A stretch of DNA of 64,000 nucleotides from the NCBI GenBank assembly GCA_964436275.1, contig CAYTBZ010000001.1, forward strand, positions 33,980 through 97,979, in the 5' to 3' direction. The position numbers and the translations under genes were made by a program. The stretch comes from an uncultured Gammaproteobacteria bacterium. GTDB lineage: Bacteria > Patescibacteriota > Patescibacteriia > UBA2591 > CAYTBZ01. This document shows positions 28,696 to 50,706 of the stretch, in pieces (the first letter of the stretch is position 1; the number at the start of each line of letters is the position of its first letter). Under the pieces are notes generated by a model. It was not told where the DNA came from, searched no databases, and worked only from the letters and a program-made list of their open reading frames with translations.

Positions 28696-29979
28696 TTATC
28701 TCCAACCTTTACCCTGACGAACTAATAACTCCCTTGCCTTCTCCGGATAAGCCATTAATTCTTTAACTATCTTTTCCATTCTCATACGTTGAGAGCCCTT
28801 GACTAAAATAACATCTCCGGACTGAATGATATTTTTTAAAAATTTAGCCGCATCATCACTTTGAAAAAAATGAAAAATTTTTTCTAAAGGCATCCCCTGC
28901 TTTCTTGCTCCTTCAATAATATTTTTAGCATTTTCTCCTACTGCTACTAAATAATCCGGGTCTAAAGAAGCAACCTTTTCTCCAACTTCAAAATGGGCTT
29001 TTGTAGAATAACTTCCTAATTCTAACATATCACCCAGAACAACGAATTTTCTTCCTTTTGAAGGTATCTTTTTCAACACATCCAAAGCCATTATCACGGC
29101 TAAAGGAGAAGCATTATAAGAATCATCAATGATAAGAGTCCTCTTTACTCCAGCAATTAATCTCATTCTTCCCGGTGGCGGATTATATTCTTTCAAGGAT
29201 TCAACAATTTCTATTAAATTCATTTTTAAAGACAAACCTACGCCAATAGCAGCTAAGGCTGCATAGGTCTGCTGTTTGCCTAAAACATATGGTAAAAATA
29301 CAGGAATAATTTTACCTTTATAGTTGATTTTAAAACGTACGCCAATTAACTCTTTACTCTCTAAAACCCCAAAGTCATTCTCCCAATCAAAAGCCATGAT
29401 ATCTGCTCGAGAAGAAAAACCATAAGTTAAAACCTTAGCATCTGTTTTATCTTTCATCTGATAAACCTTTTCATCATCAGCATTTAAAACAGCCTGACCT
29501 GAGGAAGGCAAACATTTAACTAAAACGCTCTTTTCTTGAGCAATATTCTCTAATGATTTAAAAAATTCCAAATGGACTGGCGCCACAGCAGTAACTACAC
29601 TAATTCTAGGAGGAGCAAAAGAAACCAAATATTCTAAATCACCTGGTCGATCAGCGGCCATTTCTAAAATCAAAATTTGCGGATAATTTTTTAGAGGAAA
29701 TAAAATTAATTTTTTTGCTTGCCATAAAATTTTTAACCAGCCAAAAAGAGATTTCCCGGCTGATTCAACACCTATTATCGTCAAGGGTAAACCAATTTCG
29801 TTATTATAATTCTTTTCGCTCTTTCTTACAGAAAATCTGTTTTTTAGAACAGAAAAAATTGCTTCTTTAGTTGACGTCTTTCCAACACTCCCAGTAATTC
29901 CAATAATCAATGGTTTATATTTTTTTACAATTAATTTTGCTAAAACTTTTAAAAATTTTTGGATAATTTTTTTCATCAT
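28696..29979 (-). CDS. murF: Mur ligase, UDP-MurNAc-tripeptide--D-Ala-D-Ala ligase-like
   Basis: IGITGSVGKTSTKE Mur-ligase P-loop, central and C-terminal Mur domains. Last gene of the dcw cluster. Confidence 0.7.
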   Translation of the reverse strand: MMKKIIQKFLKVLAKLIVKKYKPLIIGITGSVGKTSTKEAIFSVLKNRFSVRKSEKNYNNEIGLPLTIIGVESAGKSLFGWLKILWQAKKLILFPLKNYPQILILEMAADRPGDLEYLVSFAPPRISVVTAVAPVHLEFFKSLENIAQEKSVLVKCLPSSGQAVLNADDEKVYQMKDKTDAKVLTYGFSSRADIMAFDWENDFGVLESKELIGVRFKINYKGKIIPVFLPYVLGKQQTYAALAAIGVGLSLKMNLIEIVESLKEYNPPPGRMRLIAGVKRTLIIDDSYNASPLAVIMALDVLKKIPSKGRKFVVLGDMLELGSYSTKAHFEVGEKVASLDPDYLVAVGENAKNIIEGARKQGMPLEKIFHFFQSDDAAKFLKNIIQSGDVILVKGSQRMRMEKIVKELMAYPEKARELLVRQGKGWR

Positions 29980-45762: not shown

Positions 45763-46809
45763 CTATCTTTTCGTTATAGTAACTTTTTTGAAAAAGTCCA
45801 TATCAACTAACTTTCCAAAAGAGGTAAAAGGAGCATGAAGAAAACCATATTTCCTTCCTAGAACAAGAATCCTTTCCATATAAGAAATATCTATTTCTCC
45901 GATATGATCAGAATGATCATTTTCTAAACACTGAATTATTGCTTCCGCCCAACAAGAAAACGTTGTCCCTGACCGGACACCAGGTACTCTTACTCCTAAT
46001 TCTATATTGGGGATATTTACCATGGCTCCGTCAATTTTAAGTAAATTCGGTCTAATCTGACGAATTATTTCATAGCTAGCTTTTGAAAGATTAGGAGGCA
46101 CAGAAACTTCATAGACCACTACTCGTTTATCTTTGTTAATATAATCTGCTTTTATAAGTGAATCGGGGTGACTTGTTGCTGTTACAATAATATCTGCTGG
46201 ATATATATCGCTTAAAGAAACAGAGGCTTTTATTTTCGCTGCTCGAGGATAAGGTAAATTACTTATAAATCTCTGGAGTCGTGTTGGATTGTGCCCTATT
46301 AAAATTAAAGACACGTCTCTCTTACATAAAGACAAGGTCAGGGCTTTACCTATCAACCCATATGCTCCGACAATAGCTATGGTAAACTCTTCTAAAGAGG
46401 TGCCCATAGCTTCTGCAATTAAATCTAAACCCTCCAGGGAAACTCCGGCCGCATAACTATCTCCGTGGGTGATAGCAGCAGTAACGCCTTCTTGAATAAC
46501 AAGCCAACGTCCTTTATCAGTAATAGAAGAAGTTAATGAGGTTAAAGCAACAAACTCTACCCCTAAATAATTTTGGGCCCAGATTACAGCATCCAAAATA
46601 TCTTTTCTGACTTTCCTTATATTACCCGGTGACATCATATCTTTTCCGGTCACACCTAGTGTAATCACATAACCCTTAGCTCTATCAAAAATATTAAATT
46701 CACCCCATACTTTATATGCGGGAAGATTTCTTTTACTTTCGCACTCCGGAAATACGGCTGGTATATCTGATTTGTCTCTTAAATTTGTAATTATAGCTAC
46801 CTTTCTCAC
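45763..46809 (-). CDS. NAD(P)-binding Rossmann-fold oxidoreductase, shikimate-DH/glutamyl-tRNA-reductase-like C-terminal half, novel N-terminal half (GTG start)
   Basis: IAIVGAYGLIGKAL dinucleotide motif, ADIIVTATSHPDSLI...VVVYEVSVPPN resembling AroE/HemA NAD domains. Confidence 0.45.
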   Translation of the reverse strand: MRKVAIITNLRDKSDIPAVFPECESKRNLPAYKVWGEFNIFDRAKGYVITLGVTGKDMMSPGNIRKVRKDILDAVIWAQNYLGVEFVALTSLTSSITDKGRWLVIQEGVTAAITHGDSYAAGVSLEGLDLIAEAMGTSLEEFTIAIVGAYGLIGKALTLSLCKRDVSLILIGHNPTRLQRFISNLPYPRAAKIKASVSLSDIYPADIIVTATSHPDSLIKADYINKDKRVVVYEVSVPPNLSKASYEIIRQIRPNLLKIDGAMVNIPNIELGVRVPGVRSGTTFSCWAEAIIQCLENDHSDHIGEIDISYMERILVLGRKYGFLHAPFTSFGKLVDMDFFKKVTITKR

Positions 46810-46930
46810 CTTTTCCTCCTTTTCTTATTTTCTCTTTCCTTAACTTAAAAAACTTAAAAAATAAAATACGCCCTCCTTTCTTTTTCCTCCTAACTTTCAA
46901 AGAACAAAATTGTAAGGTTTCTTTTCTTTT

Positions 46931-46960
46931 AAAAATAGCATAATTTTTGTGTTTTGTCAA
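46931..46960 (-). promoter_or_regulatory. Promoter TTGACA-N17-TATTTT with long leader for oxidoreductase gene; paralogous to 48169-48197
   Basis: Minus-strand reading TTGACAaaacacaaaaattatgcTATTTT. Shared downstream TTTGTTCTTTGAA motif. Confidence 0.4.
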
Positions 46961-47009
46961 TTTCCTGTACTAGAAGGGTACATAGGTAACACTTTTAGGT
47001 ATTAGGATT

Positions 47010-47067
47010 GATGGGTCGCACCCGTCAAGCTTGATGGGTGCGACCCATCAAAACAGTGCGACCCATC
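47010..47067. repeat. REP doublet (near-palindrome GATGGGTCGCACCCGTCAAGCTTGATGGGTGCGACCCATC) plus extra GTGCGACCCATC copy
   Basis: Near-identical to the 40-bp palindrome at 48797-48836. Confidence 0.7.
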
Positions 47068-47145
47068 AAAACATGTAAACCTTTAAATAATAAAGAAAAA
47101 CTTTATAATCTTGTTCATCTAAGAAAATTTTTCTCTTCTCTAAAT
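47068..47145 (-). pseudogene. Fragment of RAYT/IS200-like transposase gene (codons ~23-45, frameshifted)
   Basis: Reverse strand translates to LEKRKIFLDEQDYKVFLYYLKVYMF*, about 95% identical in DNA to 48855-48922. 11-nt deletion relative to the intact copy. Confidence 0.55.
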
Positions 47146-47146
47146 G

Positions 47147-47190
47147 ATGGGTCGCACCCATCAAAAAAGACCGGGAAAATCCCGGTCTAA
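47147..47190 (-). terminator. REP unit GGTCGCACCCATC + intrinsic terminator hairpin GACCGGGAAAATCCCGGTC (TTTTTTG on minus strand)
   Basis: Lies 38 nt downstream of stop of 47228..48109. 42-nt identical to 49102-49143. Confidence 0.6.
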
Positions 47191-47227
47191 AAAGAACTTA
47201 TTTCAGCCTCTCAACTTTGAGAAATTT

Positions 47228-48109
47228 TTATTCCTCCTCTATTCCACTGTCAAACTCAATTTTATACTTACTCATTTGGCTCAAGTCGTAATCAGTATAA
47301 ATATAACCTTCAAATGTCTTCGTCTGACCATTACTGAAATTAGAAATAATAATAAGTTCAGATTCAAGAAGATTATCATCCTCATCATAGACACTGATTC
47401 TGAAATGCGCTAAAAGATAATCCTTACCAGAGTTATTAGTCATTTCACCTATTACTTTAATATACCCTACTCCAGAGTCCTTAAAATGCACATTTTTATA
47501 AAAAAATCCTCCGGCTATACCCGTAGCTTCTTCCTCTGTGATCCCTCTTTTAAATCCTTTTGTCTTCTTCTGGATATCCCGAAACGTCTCTTCAGTTTTA
47601 TTAATCGTCTTCTTAAACTCTTCCCATCTATCCTTATCAAGTACTATGGTAACCTTTTGGGCATCTATTTTATTAACACTAACTATAGTTATGTAAGGAC
47701 CTTTGACTCCGACCTTCTTCTCAAATTCCTTTTCAAACCAAATACCAATAACCAAAAAAACATTTTCTCCTCTTATTCTATCTTCTACCGAACCAATGAT
47801 AAGAACTGAATCAGCGAGTTCCTGATAGTTCTCTTGAGTTTCCTGAAACGACTTATCTGTCTTACTAACTATCGTCTTAAGCTCTTCCCAACTATCCTTA
47901 TCCAAAAGTACAACAACTTTCTGGGAGTCAATATTATCAACATTAACTATACTTATAAAAGGACCAATCTTTTGTGCAAGGCCAGCAACCATACCTAAAT
48001 AATTCTCCTTTAGAACCATATCTTTCACTACTCCAGTAACGATAAGAGAATCAGGTTCAGCAATTAATGAGATAAATAAAAAGAGGAGAACTAATAAAAC
48101 CTTCTTCAC
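47228..48109 (-). CDS. Secreted hypothetical protein with two tandem ~90-aa repeat domains (GTG start)
   Basis: Signal-peptide-like MKKVLLVLLFLFISLIA, SD AAGGAGG. Internal DNA tandem duplication (about 47560-47700 vs 47830-47960). Confidence 0.55.
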   Translation of the reverse strand: MKKVLLVLLFLFISLIAEPDSLIVTGVVKDMVLKENYLGMVAGLAQKIGPFISIVNVDNIDSQKVVVLLDKDSWEELKTIVSKTDKSFQETQENYQELADSVLIIGSVEDRIRGENVFLVIGIWFEKEFEKKVGVKGPYITIVSVNKIDAQKVTIVLDKDRWEEFKKTINKTEETFRDIQKKTKGFKRGITEEEATGIAGGFFYKNVHFKDSGVGYIKVIGEMTNNSGKDYLLAHFRISVYDEDDNLLESELIIISNFSNGQTKTFEGYIYTDYDLSQMSKYKIEFDSGIEEE

Positions 48110-48168
48110 TTTTTACCTCCTTTGTTTTTATTGTTTTTCATCCTTTTCAAAGAACAAATTTTTCCTTA

Positions 48169-48197
48169 AAACTAGCACATCTTAAGTATCTTGTCAA
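48169..48197 (-). promoter_or_regulatory. Promoter TTGACA-N17-TAGTTT for 47228..48109, abutting REP flank
   Basis: Minus-strand reading TTGACAagatacttaagatgtgcTAGTTT, then TTTGTTCTTTGAA motif at 48146-48158. Confidence 0.4.
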
Positions 48198-48201
48198 ATT
48201 C

Positions 48202-48275
48202 TTCGTCAGGGTTTCGTCAGGGTCGCACCCTAAAAAACCAGGTCGCACCCTAAAAAACCGCGCCCTAAAACACCT
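48202..48275. repeat. Flanking repeat array: (C/T)TTCGTCAGGG x2 then 20-bp units CAGGTCGCACCCTAAAAAAC x2 plus degenerate third
   Basis: Direct tandem repeats immediately downstream of the RAYT gene. Confidence 0.7.
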
Positions 48276-48281
48276 TAAAAG

Positions 48282-48989
48282 TCATTCTAAAGTCATTTCT
48301 TTTAAAATCTCTTTAGAATCAATAATATAGTTCTCAACAAACTCTTGATAAGAAGCAAAAGCTTTTATGTCTTTATCTCCGGTTGTTTTAAAATATTGGA
48401 GAATTTCTTCTGGATGAACCCAGGAAGTTTTTCGTTCGCCTATATAATCTGGATAACTTGAATAAGAATACTCAATTAGTTTCTTGGGATCTGATCCTTT
48501 TATTAACTCCAATGGGTTACAGTGGATATATCGGGAAAGATGAAGAAGATAACTTTCTTTATCAATCAAAACTGCTTTATAACGCCCTTGGAAAAGAGAA
48601 CTAACCCTTTCATATTTTTCATTAAAATATCTAACATAAGCATTTGCCAACCGTTTCATAAATTCTCTCATTGCTCTTTCATCAATCTGTTTTAACATAA
48701 AATGAAAATGGTTTGGCATTAAACAATACGCTAAAAGTTTAACCCTTTTATAAAGATCATAATCATTACCCAGTCGAAGTATATTAAATGGTATTTGATG
48801 GGTCGCACCCGTCAAGCTTGACGGGTGCGACCCATCAAAACATGGCTCACTAAGATAAACCTTTAAATAATAAAGAAAAACTTTATAATCCTGTTCGTCT
48901 AGGAAAATTTTTCTCTTCTCTACTCCACGATTATAAACGTGATAAATTCCTCCGCTTACATATTTTTTGACTGTATTTTTAGAAGGCAT
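48282..48989 (-). CDS. REP-associated tyrosine transposase (RAYT, IS200/IS605-like HUH Y1 family)
   Basis: YHVYNRG...IFLDEQDY..FL N-terminal motif, HUH motif LMPNHFHFML, catalytic Y region (GRYKAV). 235 aa. Confidence 0.75.
   Translation of the reverse strand: MPSKNTVKKYVSGGIYHVYNRGVEKRKIFLDEQDYKVFLYYLKVYLSEPCFDGSHPSSLTGATHQIPFNILRLGNDYDLYKRVKLLAYCLMPNHFHFMLKQIDERAMREFMKRLANAYVRYFNEKYERVSSLFQGRYKAVLIDKESYLLHLSRYIHCNPLELIKGSDPKKLIEYSYSSYPDYIGERKTSWVHPEEILQYFKTTGDKDIKAFASYQEFVENYIIDSKEILKEMTLE
48797..48836. repeat. Perfect 40-bp palindrome (REP inverted doublet) inside the RAYT ORF, encoding DGSHPSSLTGATH
   Basis: GATGGGTCGCACCCGTCAAG|CTTGACGGGTGCGACCCATC, exact reverse-complement halves around AAGCTT. 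Confidence 0.8.
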
Positions 48990-49048
48990 AAATAAATAAA
49001 AACAATAAAATAAAAATAGTTTACTTTATTATACCACAAAAAGTGTGC

Positions 49049-49143
49049 TTTCGTCAGGGTTTCGTCAGGGTGCGACCTAAAACCAGGTCGCACTAAAACC
49101 AGGTCGCACCCATCAAAAAAGACCGGGAAAATCCCGGTCTAAA
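49049..49143. repeat. Flanking repeat array: TTTCGTCAGGG x2, GGGTGCGACC (inverted), GGTCGCAC, GGTCGCACCCATC, then terminator hairpin GACCGGGAAAATCCCGGTC
   Basis: Upstream of RAYT. Doubles as terminator of the AMP-binding gene (stop at 49153). Confidence 0.7.
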
Positions 49144-49152
49144 GGGGCCTAT

Positions 49153-50706
49153 TTAGCCCATTATTGTTTTCTTCATTATTTTTACTATGCTTTTCCTCCC
49201 TCCTTTTGAATATAAATTTAATATCTCTATTCTAGAAGGAACCTCTTCTGGTTTAAGCAAAGAGCGGCAGTAATTTATCAGATCCTTCTCGGTTAGTTCA
49301 GATTCCCTCCTCAAAATAACCAAAGCAATAACCTCTTCTTCAATCTGCTTCTTCTTTGTCCTCTTACCCACTACTATTGCCTGCTTCACTCCTGGATGCG
49401 ATTCCAAAACCATCTCTACCTCTTGCGGAGAAACCTCACCACCAAAAGAAGAATAAATAAGTTCATTCCTTATCTGGTCAGTAATAATTATACTTCCCCC
49501 GTTCTTTTTACCTGCTAAACCGCTTCGCCAAAATCCATTTTCCCTTTCTGCTTCTGTTCGCACTTTATCTCTCCAATATCCTCTAAACACTTGAGGTCCG
49601 GCAACCAAAAATTCTCCCATTTTTACTCTTACTTCCATGCCCTCTACTTCTGAAAAAGCGCCTCCGCTCAGACCTATAAACATAGGAAAGGCCTCTGGAA
49701 AGCCAAGAATACGGATAATTTCTACTTCTCCGGCTAATTTCTCATAGAGATTCTTCTCCAGGAATGGATTAAAACTCTGCTCCAACACGCCGATGAACCG
49801 CAGGAAAGACAGATCTGGTCTTTGGAAATCCTTTATTAATTCATTAAGAAGCCCTGGCGTTGTCCAAAGAAAAGAGTGATTTTTCCAGCGAACCAGTCCT
49901 CTCTTCAATTCATCCGAATAAAGTTTGGGGAAAACTACTGAGGAACATCCGGCTGTCAAGGAGAAAAGTAAACTAACCAACCCAGGATATTCAAAAGGAG
50001 CAAAAACGAATGCCCTTTCTTCAGGAGAAGAAAAAATCTCTGGCCGATGCTGAAGGAACCATTTACCCAATTGATAAATTGCTGCCGTGACATTGCTATG
50101 ACTTATCCCTACTAGTTCTTTACCTCTTGTTTTATAAATTATCACTGCGGCATCTTCTTCTGGAACAATATTTACTGGCGAGAAATCAGGGCTATTCTCT
50201 GCTACTAGAAGAGGAAAATGGAAAGAAGAGGAAGATTTGAATGGTCCAGGAGAGAGATGAACATTCACAATGTGCTCTAAAGAACTTCTCCTGCTCTTTC
50301 TTAGAAAGTCAAAGTCATCAACCTTATCATCTGAACAAATAGCTACTTTTGCCTGAGATTTAGAAACTACTTCTTTAATCTTCCAGGTTCTCTCACGAGG
50401 ACCAAGTAAAATAGCCACCGCACCTATCCTATTCAATGCCAAAAAAGAGATAACAAACTGGAAGCAATTAGGCAAACAGATAATCACCCGGTCACCCTTT
50501 TTCACCCCAATCTTTTGCAAAGCATTGGCAAAGCGCTGACTCTTTTCCTGTAATTCTTGATAACTCATTTTCTTTCTATCTACTCCAGAAATAAGGGCTG
50601 GCTTTTCCGGATTATACTTAACCATATCATCGAAAACAGCATAAGGAGGGATAAAATGAAGATAAATCTCATCAAATAATCTGTGTACATCTCTCGCCTC
50701 GGCCAT
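49153..50706 (-). CDS. AMP-dependent synthetase/ligase (acyl-CoA synthetase / adenylation-domain family)
   Basis: AMP-binding superfamily layout. 517 aa. Confidence 0.75.
   Translation of the reverse strand: MAEARDVHRLFDEIYLHFIPPYAVFDDMVKYNPEKPALISGVDRKKMSYQELQEKSQRFANALQKIGVKKGDRVIICLPNCFQFVISFLALNRIGAVAILLGPRERTWKIKEVVSKSQAKVAICSDDKVDDFDFLRKSRRSSLEHIVNVHLSPGPFKSSSSFHFPLLVAENSPDFSPVNIVPEEDAAVIIYKTRGKELVGISHSNVTAAIYQLGKWFLQHRPEIFSSPEERAFVFAPFEYPGLVSLLFSLTAGCSSVVFPKLYSDELKRGLVRWKNHSFLWTTPGLLNELIKDFQRPDLSFLRFIGVLEQSFNPFLEKNLYEKLAGEVEIIRILGFPEAFPMFIGLSGGAFSEVEGMEVRVKMGEFLVAGPQVFRGYWRDKVRTEAERENGFWRSGLAGKKNGGSIIITDQIRNELIYSSFGGEVSPQEVEMVLESHPGVKQAIVVGKRTKKKQIEEEVIALVILRRESELTEKDLINYCRSLLKPEEVPSRIEILNLYSKGGRKSIVKIMKKTIMG

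Follow-up and report, generated by a model that had tools for sequence, protein, structure and literature searches.

A 42-nt terminator-REP repeat at two gene ends, best explained by one local duplication of a transposase block

How does an identical stretch of 42 nucleotides come to lie behind two unrelated genes, and does it belong to a repeat family that spreads ready-made transcription terminators? The question arises from the 64,000-nt stretch of DNA analysed here (hereafter the window), for which a first-pass annotation had reported an identical 42-nt module present twice, each copy soon after a minus-strand stop codon. Both of these statements hold. The 42-mer GGTCGCACCCATCAAAAAAGACCGGGAAAATCCCGGTCTAAA has two exact matches, copy A and copy B (Table 1), both as read on the plus strand; shuffled sequences give a chance expectation of 0 matches, and no third match was found in the 64-kb window with up to 3 mismatches permitted. 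The position originally given for copy B was exact, while that for copy A (47147-47190) has to be moved about 3 nt rightward. Copy A lies 36 nt from the stop codon of a gene for a secreted-type protein, which we call gene X, and copy B lies 9 nt from the stop codon of an AMP-binding, acyl-CoA ligase-like gene (AMP-ligase). In our assessment, the repeat is probably the result of an intrinsic terminator and the adjoining half of a REP hairpin having been copied once, in a local duplication of a transposase block. What is shown is the exact repeat, the hairpin with its U-tract, the collinearity of the blocks, the transposase remnants, the clustering of the REPs and the recurrence of this arrangement in several strains. 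A striking perfect repeat behind two genes can stem from one local duplication around a REP-associated transposase, and need not point to a repeat family that spreads regulatory signals.

Table 1. Positions of the main features of the locus in the window.
Feature	Position	Strand	Description
42-mer copy A	47150-47191	-	predicted terminator hairpin 47168-47188, U-tract 47163-47168 (minus), 3' half of REP hairpin
42-mer copy B	49102-49143	-	predicted terminator hairpin 49120-49140, U-tract 49115-49120, REP half-unit running into REP array
Transposase remnant	47076-47142	-	67 nt aligned with 48856-48922 (codons 24-45); 3 differences, all synonymous
Y1 (HUH) IS200-like transposase, RAYT-like	48282-48989	-	235 aa; PF01797, E=7.6e-10, above cut-off
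Gene X, secreted-type	47228-48109	-	293 aa; hydrophobic signal-peptide-like N-terminus, internal 88-aa (264-nt) repeat, C-terminal FxLYD domain
AMP-binding (acyl-CoA ligase-like) gene	49153-50706	-	Pfam PF00501, PF13193
348-aa gene	45763-46809		
REP doublet	48794-48839		perfect 23+23-nt REPIN-like palindrome inside the transposase ORF, in frame; -41 kcal/mol
REP doublet and half-REP	47008-47075		palindrome 47008-47055, 98% identical to 48795-48842; extra half-REP 47056-47075; part of the decayed transposase copy
Upstream REP array	about 49050-49118		5' of the transposase; units TTCGTCAGGGT and AGGTCGCAC/GTGCGACCT
Downstream REP array	48200-48275		between the transposase and the gene X promoter

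Read on the minus strand, both copies consist of AGACCGGGATTTTCCCGGTCT followed by TTTTTGATGG. The hairpin GACCGGGATTTTCCCGGTC has a stem of 9 bp, 6 of them GC, and a 3-nt loop, and is followed by TTTTTT. Folded on its own it reaches -15.0 kcal/mol, and the region of copy A folds well below its shuffled controls (z = -4.6). The two copies are the top two terminator-like sites across 45-52 kb, and the hairpin taken alone likewise occurs only twice in the window. With a GC-rich stem-loop, a U-tract and a co-oriented stop codon just upstream, the sequence has the features of an intrinsic terminator, so that the canonical-looking terminator proposed earlier for the transcribed strand stands as a prediction. 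The plus strand has no T-run, which makes the hairpin unidirectional and able to serve minus-strand transcripts only; the neighbouring genes of both copies are all on the minus strand. Promoter-like sites lie downstream of each hairpin, at 46960-46932 for copy A and at 49057-49028 for copy B, the latter being the transposase gene's own, with copy B upstream of it. We infer from this arrangement that transcription terminates at both hairpins. Each would probably end the transcript of its upstream gene (AMP-ligase or gene X) and probably insulate the downstream unit (the transposase gene or the 348-aa gene) from read-through.

Strong intrinsic terminators are rare in the window, and the 42-mer hairpins are among the best of them; the other strong terminator-like sites are few, and every one is different in sequence. 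Over the whole window, terminator-like sites are barely commoner than shuffles predict (7 against 12.0, 18 against 12.4 and 23 against 13.3). Across positions 1-64000, nearly all genes are minus-strand genes that follow one another in long series. Scanned against Rfam, 46500-49400 returned only sub-threshold chance matches.

The REP component that had been noticed alongside the terminator is equally recognisable. One half of a REP-type hairpin, TGATGGGT-CGC-ACCCATCA, makes up the 5' part of the 42-mer, and the full hairpin, TGATGGGTCGCACCCATCA, is complete in copy A at 47145-47163. The 42-mer would accordingly be read as the junction of two separate elements, a minus-strand terminator and half of a REP hairpin. 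The REP elements themselves are tightly clustered. The core GGTCGCACCC occurs nine times in the window against 0.26 expected, and an 8-nt core 11 times; every core, in the form GGTCGCACCC or GGTCGCAC, lies within 47014-49111, and the other ~62 kb of the window contain none. A TTCGTCAGGGT motif at 28711 was rejected as a REP unit, being a chance match in coding sequence. A further 9.4 kb of the genome, reached via the protein at the left edge of the window, contains neither the REP core nor the terminator hairpin. In the ~73 kb of genome sequence covered (the window plus these 9.4 kb, ~7% of a ~1-Mb genome), all 11 REP cores therefore lie no more than 2.1 kb from the transposase gene, and the 0 copies in the ~71 kb outside the locus would still leave room for a few tens at most in each ~1 Mb. 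The terminator hairpin adjoins two of the 11 cores. The remaining nine are without it, the other REP copies of the locus being those at 47008-47075, 48200-48275, 48794-48839 and 49050-49101.

Outside this genome, a search for the 19-nt REP hairpin across 185,579 species genomes gave four single matches in unrelated high-GC MAGs, which is about chance level. A metagenome scan found the hairpin in several low-GC contigs. It stands isolated in six of these (L010, L015, L018, L019, L021 and L022), with no transposase within 2-11 kb. An identical 19-20-nt TGATGGGTCGCACCCATCA flanks a transposase that is 54-55% identical at the protein level in L016 and L017 (positions 1656-1715 and 2435-2453 of L016), and the conservation of this REP sequence across divergent hosts is unusually strong.

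The two copies of the 42-mer are part of a longer similarity. The segments 47008-47191 and 48794-49143 align collinearly, interrupted only by a 179-nt gap (48923-49101) and small indels, and the order in both blocks is REP doublet (98% identical), 67-nt stretch (96%) and 42-mer. Missing from block A is 48923-49101, with the transposase start, the promoter and the REP array. In copy B the 67-nt stretch belongs to coding sequence, in copy A it is intergenic, and a tblastn search with the transposase matches 47173-46904 (E=3e-11), with EKRKIFLDEQDYKVFLYYLKVY identical. All 3 differences in 63 nt are synonymous, in a stretch that offers 10.7 synonymous and 52.3 non-synonymous sites (Fisher p=0.004), which indicates that the second transposase copy was once a gene under selection. 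In assembly L030, the copy A region contains an extra 36 nt resembling nt 321-356 of the transposase (RAYT) gene (28/36 identical, translating to QFMKRLTNAYV), with a score reached by 0 of 2000 shuffles. These remnants identify copy A as what is left of a second transposase gene, which had the same terminator and REP in front of it. Since the decayed copy has the doublet at the same position, the REP insertion is older than the duplication.

The edges of the block are informative as to how it may have been copied. In a shuffle test the sequences upstream of the two hairpins show no significant similarity, and the homology stops sharply at the hairpin foot, which also fits a discrete mobile unit starting with the hairpin. 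An apparent upstream similarity that included the AMP-ligase stop codon was dropped after this test. Downstream, the block homology runs on into the promoter/leader of the next gene. A simple tandem duplication was rejected because the right-hand flanks, gene X and the AMP-ligase gene, are unrelated, and an assembly artefact because the arrangement is spanned by four independent assemblies. The 42-mer has 0 differences in 42 nt against 3 in 10.7 adjacent synonymous sites (Fisher p=0.007), suggesting that its perfect identity needs constraint or gene conversion beyond simple duplication. No relatives of the AMP-ligase were found beyond its own 90% cluster at E<=1e-30; hence no outgroup without the duplication was found, and the order of events is one that we infer.

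The intact gene between the two copies encodes a transposase whose residues H94 and H96 (HUH motif H94-F-H96) and Y154 are invariant in an alignment of 13 sequences. Its best NCBIfam match is REP_Tyr_transpos (NF047646), at 42.3 bits and below the cut-off of 80, which makes the protein RAYT-like and places it outside the curated enterobacterial/pseudomonad clade. REP arrays flank the gene on both sides, and the internal REP doublet accounts for about 16 residues (FDGSHPSSLTGATHQ) of a loop that varies in length across the family. This family is large, with >7,700 matches, most of 220-230 aa and several named from Patescibacteria. The homologues L016, L036, L046 and L048 are also flanked by REP-type hairpins, which in L036, L046 and L048, from three other lineages, are GGT-NNN-ACC hairpins of their own. 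A close homologue occupies the same fixed locus in all 10 places examined, as is typical of a single-copy RAYT-like gene. IS200/IS605 elements are recognised by several near-identical complete copies; here we find one intact gene and one adjacent decayed remnant, with no other transposase copies elsewhere in 73 kb. Two strains carry a nonsense allele of the gene, GGA to TGA at codon 165 (L031, 1867-2574; L032, 4053-4760; equivalent to window position 48497). This stop truncates the protein after the catalytic Tyr region and suggests relaxed selection on the transposase in the population.

Comparison of strains shows which parts of the locus are stable. The window sequence is matched exactly in ENA assembly ERZ27248139, and assemblies from other samples (L027, NCBI GCA_053996735.1; L030; L031), 96-99% identical, have both copies at the corresponding positions. 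All 5 strains that cover copy B have it unchanged, including L033, whose AMP-ligase region shows 94.6% identity with the window. In copy A, the T-run ranges from 6 to 8 nt among strains, and the spacer before the hairpin has two alleles. Copy A of L031 has one stem substitution, C to T, that still allows G-U pairing in the minus-strand RNA and is the only stem change in the strains, and that of L027 has one REP-loop change, G to A. In L030, copy A combines A-type with B-type bases as a mosaic, with the B-type at two of the three differing synonymous sites, which favours some gene conversion. The 16-nt unit of the upstream REP array differs in copy number among strains.

Larger differences involve the modules between genes. 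A 1.47-kb segment with a gene for a 394-aa beta-helix/Por_Secre_tail-like protein is carried by L027 (6720-8191), L030 and L031 but lacking in the window; the breakpoint is at 48270/48271, in the downstream REP array. The insertion is flanked by repeated REP-array and promoter modules and carries its own terminator. In L032 we find a hybrid (recombinant) intergenic module. Recombination between the repeated intergenic modules is thus ongoing in the population.

Under the explanation that we favour, the duplicated unit would have comprised the terminator, the REP(s), the transposase gene with its internal doublet, the REP array and the promoter/leader, copied once within the locus, and the two blocks would now stand on either side of gene X. 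The upstream block, with copy B, would have retained the intact transposase gene, and the downstream block, with copy A, would have been reduced by deletions to the terminator, a REP, codons 24-45 and the REP doublet. Homologous recombination between repeated intergenic modules is the origin that we consider most plausible, for example by way of a Campbell-type circle bearing the block and gene X. Integration of such a circle, with one block and gene X, would yield the exact layout, as would unequal recombination between modules. In a weak sense, then, one gene did gain a terminator, brought along by the duplicated transposase/REP block.

The broader claim of the first-pass annotation was that the repeat family disseminates terminators, and it is not supported. 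As an explanation, a dispersed family of REPs, with the terminator built into the unit that the transposase copies to many 3' ends genome-wide, appears most unlikely. In its favour, REP doublets of P. fluorescens with flanking A/T runs have been proposed as co-opted terminators (PMC3337134), the sequence inspected amounts to only ~7% of a ~1-Mb genome, and REPs often directly follow terminator U-tracts, at copies A and B, behind the L027 394-aa gene, and in L016 and L018. These terminators, however, differ from site to site: the REP array of the L027 394-aa gene comes directly after a different terminator of that gene's own, and the REPs of L016 and L018 come after terminator-like hairpins of unrelated sequence. 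This indicates that REPs land beside terminators and are not carriers of them. In the same vein, REPs of other genomes have unrelated hairpins or none, nine of the 11 cores of the present locus lack the hairpin, and the count stays at two copies in the window at up to 3 mismatches, with none in the extra 9.4 kb. Both copies, moreover, sit inside a longer duplication that includes fragments of coding sequence. In the ~73 kb covered, there are thus only two copies and they lie in a segmental duplication, an outcome that the annotation itself had named as counting against its reading; the terminator and the REP are real, but their dissemination by a repeat family is not supported.

A different possibility is that the terminator hairpin is the left-end component of a mobile Y1-transposase unit, two insertions of which each gave an upstream gene a terminator. 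We regard this as unlikely. The same hairpin does stand at the same position, abutting the first REP, before both the intact and the decayed transposase, and the sharp end of homology at its foot is what such a unit would leave, yet the block reaches into the promoter/leader of the next gene, which recombination of whole intergenic blocks fits better than transposition does, and the right end has no second copy of the hairpin. A terminator of this kind has been reported at the left end of IS200 (PMC4513863), where it is bidirectional and not, as here, unidirectional. Homologues give a divided picture, in that a second terminator-like hairpin stands before the L016 gene, whose upstream neighbour already has one, but that hairpin does not have the sequence found here, and no terminator-like hairpin was found upstream of the L036, L046 and L048 transposases. 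There are no more copies in 73 kb, and the homologues behave as single-copy genes at fixed loci. Gene conversion enters in a further variant, in which the duplication is older and the perfect identity of the terminators comes from recent conversion between the blocks and not from constraint. The 0 differences in 42 nt against 3 in ~10.7 adjacent synonymous sites, the copy-B-type bases at two of three sites in L030 copy A, which form the expected mosaic, and the recombinant intergenic modules of L032 all agree with it. Against this, copy A of sister strains has diverged from copy B (T-run of 7-8, stem C to T, REP loop G to A), so that homogenisation is not continuous. We consider this variant very unlikely, and it refines the single local duplication of terminator and REP half without being a true alternative to it.

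How the locus compares with known systems can be stated more simply. REP/RAYT systems, REP doublets as proposed terminators and the IS200 terminator are already established, and the locus is an ordinary one of REP/RAYT type. RAYT groups and their flanking repeats have been described (PMC5581495). As in the REP/REPIN-RAYT systems of E. coli (TnpA_REP with REP/BIME) and P. fluorescens (REPINs), an IS200-related Y1 HUH transposase lies between GC-rich imperfect hairpins and inverted doublets, the type of hairpin co-varies with the transposase lineage (GGT-NNN-ACC cores in the homologues), and the REPs are extragenic, at gene 3' ends. Unlike those systems, the protein family here has ~225-235 aa with a long C-terminal extension and scores 42 against the 80 bits of the NCBIfam RAYT equivalog, the REPs are confined within 73 kb to the transposase locus and not dispersed, and there is an in-frame REP doublet in the transposase gene together with a decayed second gene copy. 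The GI REPINs of P. fluorescens, with flanking A/T runs and a proposed co-option as terminators (PMC3337134), resemble the locus in having a REP hairpin beside A/T runs at gene ends and a proposed link between REPs and termination. There, however, the REP hairpin itself is the proposed terminator and has many copies, whereas here a separate, non-REP hairpin occurs twice.

The left end of IS200, with its reported Rho-independent terminator (PMC4513863), is similar in that a terminator hairpin lies immediately 5' of a Y1 transposase gene, where it would block read-through from a neighbour. It differs in being a bidirectional hairpin in a defined, multi-copy insertion sequence; the hairpin of this locus is unidirectional and absent from other family members (L036, L046 and L048), and the mobility of any unit is putative. 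Segmental duplication with pseudogene decay offers the likeness of collinear blocks, ~90-100% identical and 1.8-1.95 kb apart, one of them with gene fragments only, although the block edges here fall at functional intergenic signals (terminator foot and promoter/leader) and recombination-prone REP arrays lie inside. The importance of the locus is limited. It adds an example of REP/RAYT type from an uncultured bacterium, probably of a Patescibacteria-like lineage that has been little sampled. With a REP doublet in frame within the transposase gene, a decayed second gene copy and a nearby gene that strains have gained or lost, it could serve to study REP-associated genome plasticity on a small scale. 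The placement of the host as Patescibacteria-like is tentative and draws on the DnaK of the window, which shares 74-76% identity with proteins from Parcubacteria/Patescibacteria.

Gene X, the 348-aa gene and the 394-aa gene of the sister strains share a promoter/leader of ~75 nt, TTGACAA...TGCTA.TTTTA...TTTGTTCTTTGAAA, located at 46895-46960 and 48145-48197 in the window and at 6800-6900 in L027. The 14-mer TTTCAAAGAACAAA has exact matches in the window at the two leader sites only. The shared sequence might be a regulatory leader or merely part of the duplicated block. It is conceivable, although quite unlikely, that the intergenic blocks (terminator, REP array and promoter/leader) act as plug-in sockets for cassettes of secreted-protein genes. 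If so, recombination or the action of the transposase on the REPs would swap the gene X and 394-aa gene cassettes, and incoming genes would automatically gain a promoter and a terminator, which would amount to an integron-like cassette site founded on a REP/RAYT system, in a Patescibacteria-like host with a small genome.

A homologue of the transposase, P0030 (L036-L045), 57% identical, keeps a fixed position ahead of YjbQ-PAP2-NYN genes in 10 assemblies. Its upstream neighbour, in called or visible length, ranges between contigs from 393 aa to >1239 aa, several of the calls being truncated by contig or locus ends, and the number of GTACCAG repeat units flanking P0030 varies among contigs.
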